DNA from: Promethearchaeota archaeon
GTDB taxonomy: Archaea > Asgardarchaeota > Lokiarchaeia > Sigyniarchaeales > SOKP01
Direction of reading: 5' to 3'
NCBI GenBank assembly: GCA_018238625.1
Contig: JABCSY010000064.1
Location: 1-23,042, forward strand
Length of the DNA stretch: 23,042 nt
The notes below the pieces were generated by a model that did not search any database, was not told the DNA's origin, and saw nothing but the letters and a program-made list of their open reading frames with translations. Shown here in pieces: positions 1 to 19,605 of the stretch; positions within the stretch are counted from its first letter, which is position 1; every line of letters begins with the position of its first letter. The position numbers and the translations under genes were made by a program.

Positions 1-1
1 A

Positions 2-889
2 TTAAAATATGCTTTAAACAATCCTACTGACTTGAGAGTATTCAGAATCGTTGAAGCCATAAAGAGGGGAATATTAATTGTCGAGATTTACCGTCTTTCG
101 AAAGTTGATAAGTGGTTTTTATATAAAATTAAAAATGTAATCGATACCGAAAATGAACTGCAAAATCTGAATCTTCTAGAAGCAACAGACGAAGAAAAAA
201 AATATTCATTTAAAAAAGCTAAGCGTAGCGGATTTTCTGATGGCCAAATTAGTAAAATAATGTCATTAGGTAATAATGGTACGGTTATAATAAGAAACCT
301 TCGAAAGAGATATGGAATTGAACCTCATGTAAAAAGAATTGATACTTTAGCTGCAGAATGGCCAGCCATTACAAATTATCTTTATCTTACTTACGCGGCT
401 TCTGAACACGATATTGATTTTGAACGCGAAAATAGAGAAAATTTAAAAAAGATAATAGTTTTAGGTTCGGGAACATATAGAATTGGTGCTTCTGTAGAAT
501 TTGATTGGGGCTCGGTAAATTGTCTCTTGGGTTTAAAGAAATTAGGAGTAGATCAAGCAATAATGATCAATTACAACCCTGAGACCGTTTCTACCGATTA
601 CGATATTTCTGATAAACTATATTTTGAGGAACTTTCAGGAGAAAGAGTGCTGGACATCTGCGAACTTGAAAAAGCTGAAGGTATTGTGGTTTCTGTTGGA
701 GGTCAAATAGCACAGAACTTAGCGGCTAAATTTTCAAAATATTCTGAATTTTTTAGAAAAGTGAATCTGAATATACTTGGTACGCATGGAAGCCGAATTG
801 ATATGGCAGAAGATCGTTCTAAATTTAGCAGTTTGCTAGATCAACTAAATATTAGACAACCTCAATGCTGTCAAGGAAAAGTTTACTAA
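2..889 (+). CDS. carB: Carbamoyl-phosphate synthase large subunit, partial (open at window start, truncated at ~867)
   Basis: Frame is open from base 2 (LKYALNNPTDLRVF). Motifs GFSDGQI, VKRIDTLAAEWPAITNYLYLTY, VLGSGTYRIGASVEFDW, NYNPETVSTDYDISDKLYFEE and IDMAEDRSKFS. Homology stops at LNIRQPQ, and the tail CCQGKVY is read-through into unrelated sequence. Confidence 0.95.
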   Translation, partial: LKYALNNPTDLRVFRIVEAIKRGILIVEIYRLSKVDKWFLYKIKNVIDTENELQNLNLLEATDEEKKYSFKKAKRSGFSDGQISKIMSLGNNGTVIIRNLRKRYGIEPHVKRIDTLAAEWPAITNYLYLTYAASEHDIDFERENRENLKKIIVLGSGTYRIGASVEFDWGSVNCLLGLKKLGVDQAIMINYNPETVSTDYDISDKLYFEELSGERVLDICELEKAEGIVVSVGGQIAQNLAAKFSKYSEFFRKVNLNILGTHGSRIDMAEDRSKFSSLLDQLNIRQPQCCQGKVY

Positions 890-992
890 AAAAGACGGAA
901 AGCTAAAGTTCATTAGATGTGATACCAAGGTTTATAATCAAAACGAGGATCTTGTCACCGATGGTGAAGCTGTCGTTTTACTATTAAATTAA
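867..992 (+). pseudogene. 3' fragment of a MaoC-family (hot-dog fold) dehydratase
   Basis: Hand translation AVKEKFTKKDGKLKFIRCDTKVYNQNEDLVTDGEAVVLLLN* matches the MaoC C-terminal pattern T-x-V-x-NQ-x-x-x-x-V-x-x-G-E-A-x-V. No start codon or N-terminal half is present. Not in the ORF track. Confidence 0.75.
967..992 (+). repeat. 26-bp imperfect direct repeat, left copy (att-like)
   Basis: aagctgtcgttttactattaaattaa; 24/26 identical to 2353-2378. Confidence 0.85.
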
Positions 993-1156
993 CAATAAAT
1001 CTTTAATTTCTACTAAATCTTTATTTATTTATTTTTTTCTCTATTTCTAAAATTACTAATTCTTTATTTTATACTCTTGCGCATTCTTTCTTGAAATTTT
1101 TCTCATTTAAAAAAGAATTAGAAAAGAATAAAAAGTAGAACTCTCTAATTATTAAT

Positions 1157-3801: not shown

Positions 3802-4968
3802 TCATCCTTTTATTCTACGCCAATAAGAACTGATTTTAATATTATCAAAGTCATAAATTTGTATTTTTGAAGTCCACTTATAGGTTTTTAGCCACAGCTT
3901 CCCAGGAAAAGGTTGCCAACCTTTAGTTGGTTGAATACTAAACTCAATTATATCGCCTACACGATTTATATGGAATTCTCCGGCAAATATACCCTTTCGA
4001 TCGTCAATACAACAAGAGAATTTACCTTTAATGTTCACATTACTTTTTAAGGCAATTAAATTAGGAATTGCGGGAGAAAATTCAAAAGAAATAGTATGAC
4101 CAACCCCATCTTCTCCCGAAATTTTTTCTATCTCGTAATAGCCCTCATTGTCTAAAATTTCATAAATCAAATTTTCATTTTTTATCTTTAACTCAGAAGT
4201 ATTTATAAGTATAGGATTTAAGTTTCCGCTATATGAATTGTTCCAATTACTAATAATCGGTTCTAAAGAATAGCGCGCTAAATAAATGTGCATTCCATTC
4301 ATCCGAACAGGCAATTCAACTGGTTTCCTTAGGGTGCCATGAGTTTTCACGAAAATTTCTGTACTTTTTTTTATTACCATACCAAACTTGTCAAGATAAA
4401 TGACTGGGAAATATTTAGGTTTTTTGCTGTCAGCGCCAACTGGAGCCAACATTGCTGTCAAATCTCTTTCAGGAGTATTTTCTTTAATTCGAAACTCGAT
4501 TTCCTTCTCTAATTTGTCTCTTAAGCGGAGATAAGCATCCAATCCCATATTATCTACTTGAAATTTAAAATCTATTTTTTCAAGTTGATTAAACGAAACA
4601 TTAGTGAGTAGATCTTCAATTAATTTCTTTCTATTGTCAATGATTGCTTCATTGGTGTAATAGATGTCTACTAAATCGTCTTTTCTATATAAAAATACAA
4701 GTGGGTATTCCTCATCTACTATACGAAAAATTTGAAGTTCAATTCCGTAGTAGATAGAGTCTTCTTCAAAATCAACAAGCATTAATCGATCTATAGGATC
4801 AAAAGTCATGTTGAATGGAGAAAAAAACATATTTTCAGGGGGATATCCATAAATTTTTAGTGAATTCTTTCGTTTACCTAGATATTTATGGTGATCCACA
4901 ACAACCTCTTTCACCTTTACATTATACATCTTTAAGAAAATTGATGTTAATCTTTTTTTTATACTCAT
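3802..4968 (-). CDS. Hypothetical protein (388 aa), probably co-transcribed with cobO
   Basis: Long ORF starting 14 bp after the cobO stop; no motif recognised. Confidence 0.75.
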   Translation of the reverse strand: MSIKKRLTSIFLKMYNVKVKEVVVDHHKYLGKRKNSLKIYGYPPENMFFSPFNMTFDPIDRLMLVDFEEDSIYYGIELQIFRIVDEEYPLVFLYRKDDLVDIYYTNEAIIDNRKKLIEDLLTNVSFNQLEKIDFKFQVDNMGLDAYLRLRDKLEKEIEFRIKENTPERDLTAMLAPVGADSKKPKYFPVIYLDKFGMVIKKSTEIFVKTHGTLRKPVELPVRMNGMHIYLARYSLEPIISNWNNSYSGNLNPILINTSELKIKNENLIYEILDNEGYYEIEKISGEDGVGHTISFEFSPAIPNLIALKSNVNIKGKFSCCIDDRKGIFAGEFHINRVGDIIEFSIQPTKGWQPFPGKLWLKTYKWTSKIQIYDFDNIKISSYWRRIKG

Positions 4969-4982
4969 TACATCTCTTTTTT

Positions 4983-5551
4983 TTAATATTCAATGCCAAG
5001 ACGAGCTTTAATCCCTTTTGAAGAGTAGTAGTGCTTGATCATTCTCATCTCAGTGAGCAAATCTGCGCGTTCCTTAATTTTAGGATGCATCTTAGGTCCT
5101 CCAGTCATAATTAATTCAACTTTTTCAGGTTTAATATCAATCAATTTTAATACATCGTCGATTTTCACGATTCCAAATTCGACAGCTACTCCTATTTCGT
5201 CAAGAATGACTATATCGTAATCGTCGCTCATAATTATCTTCTCAGCAAACGCCATACCTTTTTTTCCTTCTTCAAAATCAATTTCTCCTGGAGTTGCGAT
5301 TAAATCTGGCGTGCCAAACTGTTTTAATTCGAAGTTTGGAATTCCCTTTACAGCCGTGACTTCCCCATATTGAGGGTATCCTTTCATAAATTGAATCATA
5401 TATACTTTAAATCCATGACCCGTAGCCCGAAAGCCTTGTCCTAAAGCTGCAGTGGTCTTACCTATAGGCATTACTATTTATTTATAGCAATTTTACCCCG
5501 ACCAAAATAGACTTGTACAAGGCCAACATTTAATCTTTTTCTTTCGACCAT
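4983..5551 (-). CDS. cobO: Cob(I)alamin/cob(I)yrinic acid a,c-diamide adenosyltransferase (CobO/BtuR/CobA), split: join(5551..5493, 5463..4983), 179 aa after removal of the insert
   Basis: Exon 1 MVERKRLNVGLVQVYFGRGK plus exon 2 GKTTAALGQGFRATGHGFKVYMIQFMKG...YDIVILDEI...ELIMTG...ADLLTEMRMIKH...ARLGIEY; 59+481=540 nt, in frame. Confidence 0.92.
5464..5492 (-). other. Candidate 29-nt archaeal BHB/BHL-type intron in mRNA
   Basis: RNA reads GGGU-AA^A-AUUGCUAU-AAAUAA-AUAGUAAU-GCCU-AU^A-GGUAAG: a 4-bp helix GGGU/GCCU, 3-nt bulges AAA and AUA, and an 8-bp intron stem. Contains in-frame UAG UAA. Canonical cuts restore GGU AAA GGU AAG. Confidence 0.75.
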
Positions 5552-5741
5552 AATTATCAAGTTCCTTGAATTAATTTATACTATAAAATGAATAATAATA
5601 TAAAATTGAGTTGGGTCTTTTTTGAATAATAAACAACCTTTTATTAATTACTTTAGGATATATTTTATATCACCAAGATATTCTTTAACTAGTTGTTTTG
5701 ATAATTCTATATATTAAGATAAAAATAAGAAAATTATAGGA

Positions 5742-6860
5742 ATGGTTATGAGTGTAAACAATGAAAACATAGCCCTGTATCGAAAATTACAGGAGCATCT
5801 TGATAAAATGCCATTAGGATTTCCTTCAACAAAATCTGGATCAGATATTAAATTACTTAAGCGTCTATTCGCGCCCGAAGAGGCGAAAATTGCTAGATTC
5901 TTAAAATTTGGATGGGAGAGAGACCTTGAACCTTTAAATACCATTTACGAACGTGCGAAAGAGACTGGAATTTTAAAAGAAGAATTAGAACAAGCCTTAG
6001 ATAAAATGGTTCAAAAAGGACTTCTTATGTTTAAAAGGGAAGCAAAAAAGAAATATTACGGTAACGCTTTACTCATGATTGGAATGTTTGAGTTCCAAGT
6101 AAACAAGCTAACAAAGGAATTTATAGAAGATTTTCACGACTATTTTGGTAAAAAATGGCTTGCGGAAGCTATAAAAGTGAAGGGTGCTCAATTACGGGTA
6201 ATTCCAGTTGAGCAAAGTATAGAATTTGAATATAGTATTAATAATTACGACGATGTCATAAAGCTTCTTGATACAACTGATGGGCCATATATGGTAACTA
6301 ATTGTCTTTGTAGACAAATAAAGGACATCTTGGAGGAACCGTGTAAAGCGACTTCTCGGAGAGAAGTATGTTTAGCGTTTGGATTTGCAGCAGAATTATA
6401 TATAGAGCAAGGATGGGGGCGTTCTATAAGTAAAGATGAAGTTCTTGAAATTCTACGAAAAAACGAGGAGGAAGGACTAGTGCTTCAACCTGACAACTCA
6501 CAAAATTTAACAGTTATTTGTAGTTGCTGTAGTTGTTGTTGCGAAGGCTTATCAAAACTTAAATTATTTCCAAACCCTGGAGATCTTACAATAACTAACT
6601 TTTACGCTGATGTGGAACCTGATCTATGCTCAGGTTGTGGAACTTGCGTTGAGATTTGCCCAATGGAGGCAATAACGCTCGTTGACGATATATCTTCGAT
6701 TGAGCGGAAACGTTGTATTGGATGTGGAAACTGCGTTACTAAATGTCCGTCTGAAGCAATAAAACTCCATAAAAGAGAAAGACAATTCGTTCCTTATCCG
6801 ACAATGGACGACCTATACGATAAAATAATGGAAAGAAAATTAAGATTAAAAAATAGGTAA
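5742..6860 (+). CDS. 4Fe-4S dicluster-binding protein with N-terminal HTH-like region
   Basis: CLCR, ICSCCSCCC, and two ferredoxin motifs CSGCGTCVEICP and CIGCGNCVTKCP. Confidence 0.88.
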   Translation: MVMSVNNENIALYRKLQEHLDKMPLGFPSTKSGSDIKLLKRLFAPEEAKIARFLKFGWERDLEPLNTIYERAKETGILKEELEQALDKMVQKGLLMFKREAKKKYYGNALLMIGMFEFQVNKLTKEFIEDFHDYFGKKWLAEAIKVKGAQLRVIPVEQSIEFEYSINNYDDVIKLLDTTDGPYMVTNCLCRQIKDILEEPCKATSRREVCLAFGFAAELYIEQGWGRSISKDEVLEILRKNEEEGLVLQPDNSQNLTVICSCCSCCCEGLSKLKLFPNPGDLTITNFYADVEPDLCSGCGTCVEICPMEAITLVDDISSIERKRCIGCGNCVTKCPSEAIKLHKRERQFVPYPTMDDLYDKIMERKLRLKNR

Positions 6861-16222: not shown

Positions 16223-17203
16223 TTAACTATTTTTTTTTTTTATTTCTAAAGTTATTTTATCAAAAATTTCATGAATAGAGCTATAAATATTGAATTTACC
16301 ATCTTCCAAAGCGCTTTTTACAATATTATTTACTTCATTTTGGTCTACAAAGTTTTCCATGATAAGCTTTTCGACTTTGGTAAAAATCAGTTCCTTAATT
16401 TTGTAAGAAAAACGTTTTTTTTTCTTTTCGGTAATATTGCCTGAAAGTTCAACGTGTTCTTTATGGTCCCAAATACTTTGGAGAAGTTCGTCTATACCCT
16501 CGCCACTGATTGCATCAGTCAATACAACTGGGGCCCGATACCCGCTCTGAAATATTGTGTCGTCGAGCATCATTTCAATTTGTACAGCTATATCTTCTCC
16601 GCCTAAATCCTTTTTGTTGACATCGTAAATATCTCCTATTTCAATTATCCCCGCTTTTTGCATTTGAATAACATCTCCGTATCCAGGTACTAGAATGACA
16701 ACAACAGTATATACTAAATTGTACACATCGAATTCAGCTTGTCCAACGCCAACAGTTTCAATAATGATTATATCCATGCCAAAAGCTTCGTATAGCATGG
16801 TAATGTCAAAAACTGCTCTTGAAATTCCTCCTTGATACCCTCTTGATGCAAGGCTACGCATAAAAACGTTAGGGTGTAAGCAGATGTTAGTCATTCTAAC
16901 TCTATCCCCTAAAAAAGCGCCTCCACTAAAAGGAGACGTCGGATCTACGGAAATAATGCCTACAGTTTTTCCTTCGTCTAACATTTTTTGAGCTATTGCC
17001 CCGGTTAAAGTGCTCTTTCCAACGCCAGGAGAACCTGTAAGTCCAATAATATAAGAGTCGTGATTTATGTTTTCAAAATGCTTGAAAATCTTAGTAGCCT
17101 TCTCAGGTTCGTTTTCAACAATTGTTATTAGCCTAGCTAAAGCAATTTTATCTTTCTTTTTAAATCTGTTAACTAAAGATTCTATAATATCGTCATTCGT
17201 CAA
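16223..17203 (-). CDS. meaB: MeaB/ArgK-family GTPase (acyl-CoA mutase chaperone)
   Basis: GLTGSPGVGKST, VDPTSPFSGGAFLGDRVRM, IIETVGVGQAE, VNKKD. Confidence 0.95.
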   Translation of the reverse strand: MTNDDIIESLVNRFKKKDKIALARLITIVENEPEKATKIFKHFENINHDSYIIGLTGSPGVGKSTLTGAIAQKMLDEGKTVGIISVDPTSPFSGGAFLGDRVRMTNICLHPNVFMRSLASRGYQGGISRAVFDITMLYEAFGMDIIIIETVGVGQAEFDVYNLVYTVVVILVPGYGDVIQMQKAGIIEIGDIYDVNKKDLGGEDIAVQIEMMLDDTIFQSGYRAPVVLTDAISGEGIDELLQSIWDHKEHVELSGNITEKKKKRFSYKIKELIFTKVEKLIMENFVDQNEVNNIVKSALEDGKFNIYSSIHEIFDKITLEIKKKNS

Positions 17204-17272
17204 TAAGATACATCCTCAGATAAATTTTAGATATTAAATATTAATTTGATAAAAAAATTAAACATGTTTATT

Positions 17273-17671
17273 TTATTTTTTGAGATGAGTTTTAATAAAC
17301 TCAACAATGTCATTTGTCATGCTTCCAGGGCCATAAATGTTAGCTACGCCCATTTCTTTTAATTTTGGAAAATCTTGAGCGGGAATAACGCCTCCTACTA
17401 AGATGAGAATGTCGTTGAGCACTCCCTTTTCCTTTAAAAGATCAATCACTTGTTTTGTATATGCGAAATGAGCCCCGCTGTGTATGGATAAACCAAGAAC
17501 ATCAATATCCTCTTGAATTGCTGTTTCTACGATCTGTTTTGCGTTCTGAAACCCTCCGAAAATGAGTTCCATGCCGGCATCTCTTAAAGCTCTTGATACT
17601 ACGATTCCCCCCCTCCAATGACCATCTATTCCGGGTTTAGACATTAATACTCTAATCTTTTTCTCACTCAT
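17273..17671 (-). CDS. Acyl-CoA mutase small (cobalamin-binding) subunit
   Basis: KPGIDGHWRG (DxHxxG), GLSIHSGAH, VGGVIP, IYGPGS; start ATG 17671 preceded by GAGGTGA. Confidence 0.93.
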   Translation of the reverse strand: MSEKKIRVLMSKPGIDGHWRGGIVVSRALRDAGMELIFGGFQNAKQIVETAIQEDIDVLGLSIHSGAHFAYTKQVIDLLKEKGVLNDILILVGGVIPAQDFPKLKEMGVANIYGPGSMTNDIVEFIKTHLKK

Positions 17672-17676
17672 ACTTT

Positions 17677-17683
17677 TCACCTC
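17677..17683 (-). promoter_or_regulatory. Shine-Dalgarno site GAGGTGA
   Basis: tcacctc on the + strand, 5 nt upstream of ATG 17671. Confidence 0.7.
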
Positions 17684-17685
17684 AG

Positions 17686-19359
17686 TTAAATTGCTAATGG
17701 GGGTTCCCAAATACCCCATATTTCTCTGTAAATATCACATATTTCGCCTACTGTTGCTCCTTCTTTTGTAGCTTCCATTATTATAGGCATCACATTTTCT
17801 TCTTTTTCGCAGACGCTTCTTAGTTTGTCTAAAATCTTCTCTAACTTGGCGTTGTCTCTCCTTGCTTTTAACTTGTTAATCCGATCAACTTCAATGTCTA
17901 TAGCTTTTTGCGATGTTCTGAAGACATCTGTGACTGTGTCGTAAGGAACTTGATATTTATTGACACCTAATGTGATTTCCTCTCCTTTTTCAGCGCGTAC
18001 CCTTCTCTTATGGAATGCGTCTCTCATTTCTTTGTAGAGCCAACCCGTAGATAAAGCTTTATCTATGGAACCAACCTTTTGAATTTTGTCCATATATTTC
18101 CATACTCTTTCTTCAATCTCATCTGTTAACCACTCTACGTAATAACTTCCTGCTAATGGATCTATTGTGTTAGTTATTCTGGTTTCGTCTGCGATTACTT
18201 GCTGAGTTCTTAACGCAACTAAGGCGGCTTCCTCTGAGGGTAGACAAATAGCCTCATCGTAAGAATTTGTATGGAGCGATTGACATCCCCCTATGTTAGC
18301 CTCTAAACCTTGAATTGCAGTCCGTACGATGTTAATCATAGGCAATTGCGCCGTTAAAGAGCTTCCCGCGGTTTGTACGTGAAACCTAAAACCAAGATTT
18401 TTAGGATTTTTAACTTCGTATTTATCTTTCATGAGCTTGTGCCATATCCTTCGAGCTGCGCGATATTTTGCTATTTCCTCAAAGAAATCCTTATGAGCTG
18501 CTAAATGAAAAGCTAGTCTACCTACAAAATCATCAGCTTTCCAACCTCTCTCGATTAAGTTATCAATATGAGAACAAGCGCTCGCAAATACGAAACCTAA
18601 CTCTTGAACCGCGTCTATGCCACCTTCGCGGTAGTTATAACCGGTAAAATTAATGGGGTGCCATTTTGGAACGTTCTTTTGAGCTACTGTCCATTCAATA
18701 AAATCACAAGCCACTCGCAACAAATGATTTGGTGGACTGTTTTTATAAGGGATATATCCAACTGTCATCGTTAGTATATCGTTTTGTGTCGTACCCATTA
18801 AATTTTTTATGTCATATCCGCGCATTTTTGCCATGTTAAAATACATTGCACACACAGGAGCACACGTAAAGGGTTCAACAACTAAAGCTACGCTAATTTT
18901 ATCTATAGGTATGTCTTCTGTAAGCGCAAAAAGGCTGTCAATGCAATAAAGCGGAACACCAGATGTACCTACCTCTGGTGCGGCATCAGAGTTTGTAGGG
19001 TCAATTCCGTTAAAAGTAAGCGCGTCGACGGCAGCACTGAATCCCGTCTCACCGTTCTCGTACAAGTATTTCCATCTTAGATTAGTCTCTTCTGGAGTTC
19101 CGTGGCCTGAAAATAACCTCATAGTCCATAATCTTCCACGATACATGGTAGGATAAACCCCTCTTGTATAGGGTTCTTGCCCAGGAAAGTTAACTTTATC
19201 TAAATAATCTCCTTTTACATCTAATGGGGTGTACAACTTTTTTATTGGAATCTCGGAATCAGTTACAAATTTAACATCGCGTTCTTTTGATTCTTTTAGC
19301 TTTTCTTCCCATTTCTCTTTTTCTAATCTAATTTTTTCTAAGTAATCTTTATCAAACAT
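17686..19359 (-). CDS. Acyl-CoA mutase large (substrate-binding) subunit, methylmalonyl-CoA mutase family, divergent active site
   Basis: FPGQEPYTRGVYPTMYRGRLWTMR, GTTQNDIL, FFEEIAKYRAARRIW, FHVQTAGSSLT, QSLHTNSYDEA, DPLAGSYYVE; start ATG 19359 (ORF track gives 19371). Confidence 0.95.
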   Translation of the reverse strand: MFDKDYLEKIRLEKEKWEEKLKESKERDVKFVTDSEIPIKKLYTPLDVKGDYLDKVNFPGQEPYTRGVYPTMYRGRLWTMRLFSGHGTPEETNLRWKYLYENGETGFSAAVDALTFNGIDPTNSDAAPEVGTSGVPLYCIDSLFALTEDIPIDKISVALVVEPFTCAPVCAMYFNMAKMRGYDIKNLMGTTQNDILTMTVGYIPYKNSPPNHLLRVACDFIEWTVAQKNVPKWHPINFTGYNYREGGIDAVQELGFVFASACSHIDNLIERGWKADDFVGRLAFHLAAHKDFFEEIAKYRAARRIWHKLMKDKYEVKNPKNLGFRFHVQTAGSSLTAQLPMINIVRTAIQGLEANIGGCQSLHTNSYDEAICLPSEEAALVALRTQQVIADETRITNTIDPLAGSYYVEWLTDEIEERVWKYMDKIQKVGSIDKALSTGWLYKEMRDAFHKRRVRAEKGEEITLGVNKYQVPYDTVTDVFRTSQKAIDIEVDRINKLKARRDNAKLEKILDKLRSVCEKEENVMPIIMEATKEGATVGEICDIYREIWGIWEPPLAI

Positions 19360-19605
19360 ATTCAAAAACACTTTTTATTTAGCTATGTAATGTTAAACTT
19401 TCATTCAATTTAAAATAAATTTTTGAACTTTAAGATTTTTGATTGTTGTAATAAAATCGTGCCTTGTGCCTTTTTATAAAATAAAATCCATAATTTAATT
19501 TAGGCTGAAATTTTTTTTAATCTACTTAATGTGTAAAGTATTAAATTAAATTCTTTTAATAAATTCTATCTAATCAGAATAGAACAAGTATTTTGTGAGA
19601 AATAA

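Follow-up and report, generated by a model that had tools for sequence, protein, structure and literature searches.

The window, a stretch of 23,042 nucleotides of Promethearchaeota DNA, carries a cobO/btuR gene on its minus strand whose reading frame is interrupted inside the P-loop. Is this gene damaged, or does it contain an intron that the enzymes of tRNA splicing remove from its mRNA? From the ATG at 5551, the unspliced frame runs for 25 codons before it meets a stop in a 29-nt insert (5464..5492, with in-frame TAG TAA at 5476-5471). Exon 1 (5493..5551) contains 19 codons and the AA of a Lys codon, covers the first beta-strand and the start of the P-loop, and aligns with the N-terminus of intronless cobO orthologues. 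The CobA structures 1g5r and 4hut of the PDB align with one such orthologue (L014) through the exon 1 stretch and across the insert site. Exon 2 (4983..5463) supplies the last base of the Lys codon, continues with GKTT to the stop, and matches positions 14-172 of PF02572 (E 3e-46). Excision of 5492-5464 yields 179 aa plus a stop, with GRGKGKTTAA whole. We consider it highly probable that the insert is a real HBh' intron of mRNA, and a member of a class of 28-39-nt introns in a Loki-type lineage.

Structure of the cobO insert

The original prediction described the insert as an intron in a relaxed bulge-helix motif, and its coordinates for the ATG, helix, bulge, stem and loop were all reproduced from the sequence. 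All elements lie on the minus strand. The central helix H pairs the exon strand GGGU (5495..5498) with the intron strand GCCU (5466..5469). The 5' splice site falls in a 3-nt bulge, AA^A (5492..5494), which is AAA, or AAU in two relatives (L097, L112). The intron hairpin h' (5470..5491) has 8 bp between the arms 5491-5484 and 5477-5470, one of them G-U, and a 6-nt loop. The 3' splice-site trinucleotide, AU^A (5463..5465), lies in a loop and not in a closed bulge; among relatives it occurs as AU^A, AC^A, AG^A, AA^A, AU^G or AA^G. If both trinucleotides are cut behind their second base, as had been claimed, exactly 29 nt are removed and the frame is restored.

The motif is relaxed, as originally described, but the label hBH had to be replaced. 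Because its strict half lies towards the intron, the motif is of the HBh' (BHL-like) form, in the nomenclature of PMC5829648. In place of the second 3-nt bulge closed by an exon helix that characterizes a strict BHB (hBHBh'), the insert has G5499 opposite G5462 and a 3' trinucleotide without an adjacent exon helix. An outer exon helix UGGUC/GACCA (5504-5500 with 5457-5453), which would extend the motif to 5453..5504 on the same strand, had also been proposed and is unsupported: it is absent from the minimum-energy fold, reaches pair probabilities of 0.04-0.30, shows no compensatory change, and has its pair 18-62 broken in five of 15 variants. The 29-nt size rules out a group I, group II or homing-endonuclease-coding intron, and positions 4900-5800 gave no Rfam match at E <= 1.

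RNA folding gives a mixed picture. Helix H, the AAA bulge and the stem of the intron hairpin are all present in both the minimum-energy and the centroid fold of 5520-5440, and the stem has pair probabilities of 0.5-1.0 at three fold lengths. The central helix is paired with a probability of 0.77-0.97 in folds of 51 and 81 nt, but of only 0.07-0.10 in a fold of 161 nt, and RNAalifold chooses another small hairpin in its place. The 5520-5440 fold is also about as stable as those of shuffled sequences (z = 0.10, with 103 of 200 shuffles as good). The hairpin alone is therefore not above chance, and the evidence is comparative.

Distribution and variation among cobO relatives

Three overlapping sets of cobO loci (30, 79 and 77 loci), whose counts are not summed, were compared. 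Among the 30 best loci from 61 genomes, the host genome (G000) included, 12 carry an insert at the same site and 18 do not; six of these inserts are 29 nt and six are 30 nt long, and every 30-mer contains an in-frame stop. In a genome set of 80 loci, 63 lack the insert, one lacks the motif and 16 have the insert (16/79), 14 of them recognized by pattern and two (L097, L112) by alignment. In a metagenome set of 80 loci, inserts of 29-32 nt are present in 19 and absent from 58, and three loci are too short (19/77); all four central-helix pairs are present in 19/19 of these inserts. Same-site inserts of 29, 30, 31 and 32 nt fall in all three frames, and each shifts the frame or bears a stop. A cobO tree, built without four short or motif-less loci, requires at least eight gains or losses (17/77 rows).

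The sequences of the inserts vary while their geometry persists. Over 15 distinct variants, 94.6% of cells are paired, compared with 30-55% in slid registers. Five of the eight stem pairs show two-sided change, a covariation score reached by 0/500 shuffles; this figure comes from related sequences and is not a probability. One relative (L091) has the same geometry with an unrelated stem sequence. The central helix is paired in 98.3% of cells, but its changes are one-sided only, and the absence of any two-sided change among the 15 variants counts against it. G is the last base of the Arg codon within the helix in 13 of 14 loci with the insert and in 9 of 63 without it, a wobble bias in the exon that fits a demand for pairing inside the central helix. 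In L097 and L112, which have AAU in the first bulge and AGA in the second, the Lys codon is restored by the EndA register only. The alignment of orthologues that had been proposed as a check thus shows presence and absence at one exact site together with compensatory stem changes. The original prediction of an EndA/RtcB-type mRNA intron emerged favourably from every comparative test, and we infer splicing on this sequence evidence.

Two further features of these loci were observed. A 388-aa gene without a Pfam match lies directly after cobO (3802-4968, minus strand); 16 of 30 loci keep it next to cobO, and its presence does not depend on the insert. In addition, 18 of 76 cobO loci have no ATG, GTG or TTG within 12 codons upstream of the conserved N-terminal motif (L040, L041, L043, L044, L047, L052-L055, L057, L062, L079, L084-L086, L094, L098, L110). 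Most of the 18 have a Shine-Dalgarno-like GAGGT or GGTG a few bases 5' of ATT, ATC or ATA, a pattern that suggests non-AUG initiation.

Inserts of the same type in other protein genes

The original prediction had guessed that cobO might represent an overlooked intron class, and this guess was borne out: by our own count over 54 census rows from homology-guided searches, about 18 insert sites occur in seven gene families, namely cobO, ubiquitin-conjugating E2 (PF00179), LeuRS, an eIF2-gamma-like GTPase, a BadG-type ATPase, GH38 alpha-mannosidase and thiolase. The inserts are 28-39 nt long, mostly 29-30 nt, and lie at conserved motifs. Ten of them, in eight gene copies, were found in the host genome.

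The E2 gene has six insert sites in about 170 codons. Its 30-nt inserts are represented by C91:7978-8007 of the host genome and two more sites in that locus (L164), as well as in L173, L187 and L119; three are found in the C91 copy of the host genome, one in its C185 copy, two in G014 and three in G023. One E2 insert of the C91 copy is in frame and stop-free, and it retains only one of four central-helix pairs, which counts against the intron explanation. In LeuRS, 6 of 30 loci have an insert at a single shared site, including C152:29097-29126 of the host genome. Further inserts of the host genome are located in GH38 (C175:42701-42730), in the P-loop of the eIF2-gamma-like GTPase (C165:258-286), in the BadG-type ATPase (C59, near 8947) and in thiolase (C71, near 40530). 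The thiolase gene has about seven sites across relatives (L317, L315, L316, L196, L311), four of them in G004 (L317) alone, and the thiolase of G008 is an open frame of 407 aa, 99% identical over the query, where that of the host genome is broken. The essential LeuRS and eIF2-gamma-like genes are also interrupted in relatives whose search revealed no second close copy.

The geometry was evaluated in a census of 277 loci, for which relatives of each family were fetched and aligned under protein guidance with a free intron state. It yielded 74 distinct inserts, 67 of them frame-breaking. When bulge sizes of 1, 2, 3, 4 and 5 nt were tried with the full 4-bp helix and its closing pair, 1, 2, 48, 1 and 3 of these 67 fitted, respectively, the sizes other than 3 nt being decoys. 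The 67 include seven antisense shadows, none of which fits the motif (0/7), four inserts in unconserved stretches and two without the closing pair. The 54 rows other than these 13 were used for the codon and recoding tests below, and all three codon phases occur among them (18, 16 and 20 rows). Since the loci were picked around known insert-bearing genes, and relatives are not independent, the counts describe geometry and not frequency.

Frequency was addressed by genome-wide scans. Ab initio scans of the host genome gave no bulk excess of 3-nt bulges (499 vs 495-534, 75 vs 89-103 and 73 vs 70-85), the first of them missing cobO at its thresholds, and the motif alone therefore does not find introns. 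The 19 top candidates were submitted to Pfam, which upheld three (E2, GH38 and LeuRS), at conserved motifs; the others resemble operon junctions or are unexplained. A motif-free test of paralogues recovered E2 and LeuRS and added the eIF2-gamma-like P-loop, the BadG-type ATPase and thiolase. A density test of 400 kb of G007 against the host genome (273 orthologue pairs) found no new intron: it flagged 89, skipped six long genes including LeuRS, and listed 13 rows, of which none had at least 8 of 11 flanking residues identical. The reverse test gave one 55-nt row with two of four helix pairs. The ahcY, rnhB, cbf5 and rtcB genes of the host genome are open, uninterrupted frames. The inserts are rare genome-wide.

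Some candidates and neighbouring features were set apart. The GH38 paralogue of G045 (L402, near 1020) has an in-frame TGA after FSRGMG, and no insert was found there; it is not an intron, but a broken gene or a recoded stop. A short frame in G051 is likewise not an intron. In the eIF2-gamma-like protein of this genus (L197:366-1400, L194), a helix-hairpin-helix domain (PF14520) is fused N-terminal of the GTPase.

Splicing machinery, alternatives and known systems

The host genome is 97.9% complete with 7.59% contamination. Its cobO is the sole match to PF02572, and no match to PF01923 or other corrinoid adenosyltransferase was found in the genome at this completeness. The window also encodes methylmalonyl-CoA mutase, its B12-binding subunit and MeaB (16223..19371, minus strand; PF01642, PF02310, PF03308), a system that needs adenosylcobalamin, the product of CobO. 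Two EndA paralogues and one RtcB are encoded. One EndA retains Tyr, His and Lys, which we take to be the catalytic triad, and its N-terminal loop aligns with the alpha subunits of crenarchaeal enzymes (3p1z, 2cv8); the second is without the His. Asgard EndA is an (alpha-beta)2 enzyme with an L1 loop that is linked to relaxed substrates, according to PMC5829648. The host EndA is probably a broad-specificity enzyme of this kind with an L1-like loop, its assembly and the L1/CSL name deriving from the alignment and that source. The tRNA genes of the host hold introns of the same build as the cobO insert, for example D-loop introns in which, read by eye, the trinucleotides AAA and AUA flank a 4-bp helix. 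In a T-arm scan, 3-nt bulges were not over-represented (110 vs 78-114), and the scan serves as a source of examples only.

Mobile elements and assembly features were noted alongside. No homing nuclease was found near cobO among the ORFs scanned in the window, and the single PF14528 match of the host genome is on another contig. A free-standing 464-aa ORF of the LAGLIDADG family adjoins a tRNA-synthetase-like gene (C12:4040-5434), and a reverse transcriptase of 587 aa is encoded at C147:6853-8617; neither adjoins a found insert. At the start of the window (1-995), a fragment of carB (PF02787, PF25596) breaks off near 865 and gives way to another frame without a Pfam match, presumably resembling the tail of a hotdog-fold/MaoC protein; this junction is possibly a chimeric join. 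Second, diverged copies exist of LeuRS (C152/C30), E2 (C91/C185) and the eIF2-gamma-like gene (C165/C106). The duplication of single-copy genes suggests that two species contributed DNA to the bin, so the ten inserts need not all come from one organism.

Four other explanations were weighed. The best survivor, itself very unlikely, is a split gene: translation would stop in the insert and restart at an ATG, GTG or TTG located three codons upstream of GKT. The products, a peptide of 25 aa and a protein of 162 aa, would act jointly, or the N-terminus would be dispensable. An in-frame NTG is indeed present in the insert of 17/17 cobO rows, and in the host genome TAA overlaps ATG. However, the T of this start codon belongs to the invariant A-U closing pair and its G to the central helix, and both are explained by the structure because the helices fix them; only 7 of 37 non-cobO rows have such a codon. 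A split would also place the break inside the GxGKGKT loop and leave three to four breaks in one E2 or thiolase gene unexplained.

Ribosomal recoding, by frameshift, read-through or a programmed hop over the hairpin, is less probable again. Short stop-bearing hairpin inserts resemble bypass elements such as those of T4 gene 60 and the yeast mitochondrial byps, in which matched take-off and landing codons allow whole codons to be skipped. Matched codons occur in 8 of the 54 rows but are lacking in the other 46, cobO of the host among them (AAA vs AUA), and in 10 rows no removal of whole codons preserves the peptide; neither the cobO insert nor most of the rows thus show the features of programmed bypass. 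Recoding is also at odds with inserts in all three frames at one site and gives no reason for a 4-bp helix with a 3-nt bulge.

Slightly lower still in our estimation stands a phase switch, in which a short DNA element would be cut exactly out of the chromosome in some members of the population. Close relatives have intronless alleles with the exact junction, and the repeated gains or losses on the cobO tree would fit such an element. The helices, however, depend on G-U pairs and form on the sense strand only. Searches for copies of the inserts elsewhere in the host genome returned none better than shuffles, and eight inserts have no second copy; a deletion of the insert is not listed in the DNA runs, a weak argument from contigs only. 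Exact intron loss through a spliced copy is possible, as proposed for cbf5 (PMC2738675).

The cobO insert is neither an assembly error nor a pseudogene. DNA contigs from two studies, X10 (5404-5800) and X4 (5149-5652), bridge it without a gap. A further run, X20, probably also of DNA, ends inside the insert; no RNA run is listed for this stretch, and the metatranscriptome X21 gave 0 records. Among insert bearers (66 pairs), exon 2 has a pN/pS of 0.157 and the final 15 codons of exon 1 one of 0.186, and the median dN/dS of 0.072 is as low as that of intronless copies (0.083). Such an artefact, for which the two organisms' copies of several genes, probable chimeric joins and the contamination of the bin might speak, is the least probable of the four given these values, the bridging contigs, the many independent assemblies with the insert and the lack of another adenosyltransferase.

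We therefore return to an mRNA intron as the preferred explanation. The transcript would fold so that the last bases of exon 1 form the 4-bp helix with the end of the intron, beside a 3-nt bulge and the intron hairpin. An (alpha-beta)2 splicing endonuclease would cut the bulge behind its second base and, at the other site, two bases 3' to the helix, and RtcB would ligate the exons, rebuilding the Lys codon of the P-loop from AA and A. Members of the class would be gained and lost quickly in a small set of genes. Very probably, this lineage splices mRNA, with cleavage, ligation and any regulatory use predicted from sequence. It is likely, though a bolder claim, that these are true multi-exon genes, in which the tRNA machinery routinely cuts several 30-nt introns per mRNA, gained and lost at motifs of hotspot genes, and that EndA and RtcB gate enzymes of B12 metabolism, translation and ubiquitination.

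Splicing of mRNA without the spliceosome is known from eukaryotes, where IRE1 and an RtcB-type ligase process XBP1/HAC1 mRNA; the XBP1 intron is likewise short and frame-changing, and is sealed in the RtcB manner. In contrast to the Asgard inserts, XBP1/HAC1 splicing uses a different nuclease, IRE1, recognizes two stem-loops and is stress-regulated, and no homology is claimed. IRE1/RtcB splicing is mentioned in PMC13149111.

The closest archaeal precedent is the BHB intron of cbf5 pre-mRNA in Desulfurococcales and Sulfolobales (Yokobori 2009, PMC2738675; Watanabe 2002 as cited there). Like the Asgard inserts, it is a short intron of coding sequence (16-44 nt) that interrupts a stretch critical for function, frequently has a relaxed motif, is tied to a hetero-oligomeric EndA and shows patchy gains and losses. 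Splicing is demonstrated for cbf5 and is predicted here from sequence. The Asgard inserts differ in belonging to another phylum, in affecting genes of metabolism, translation and the ubiquitin system instead of a single gene for RNA modification, and in numbering about 18 sites in seven families with up to four per gene; cbf5 of the host is an open frame of 350 aa. PMC2738675 also notes unconfirmed predictions of such introns in other genes. The HBh' tRNA introns of Asgard archaea share the motif, size range, repeated gains and enzymes (bioRxiv 10.64898/2026.10.13.758758; PMC11291895), but both papers are concerned with tRNA genes only, and the terms 'mRNA' and 'cbf5' occur 0 times in the main text of the former. 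The BHB intron in the 5' UTR of Haloferax volcanii HVO_1309 is a further case of EndA acting on mRNA, but lies outside coding sequence and is a single case; cbf5 is the only other mRNA example named in that paper (PMC7714728). No report of mRNA introns in Asgard archaea was found in searches of open-access PMC and bioRxiv.

The mechanism is already known; what is new is that an Asgard lineage would use it at many sites, several of them on one mRNA, in genes for metabolism, translation and ubiquitin. In the searchable literature, archaeal mRNA introns are an oddity of one gene, cbf5. If the inserts are spliced, splicing of mRNA by the tRNA machinery would be routine in these cells, and gene callers would truncate or split the affected genes, including eukaryote-signature genes and markers used for trees. 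The gain and loss of introns would be traceable between close species, and each junction is predicted to the base. If true, relatives of the eukaryotic host would have an exon-intron structure without a spliceosome.
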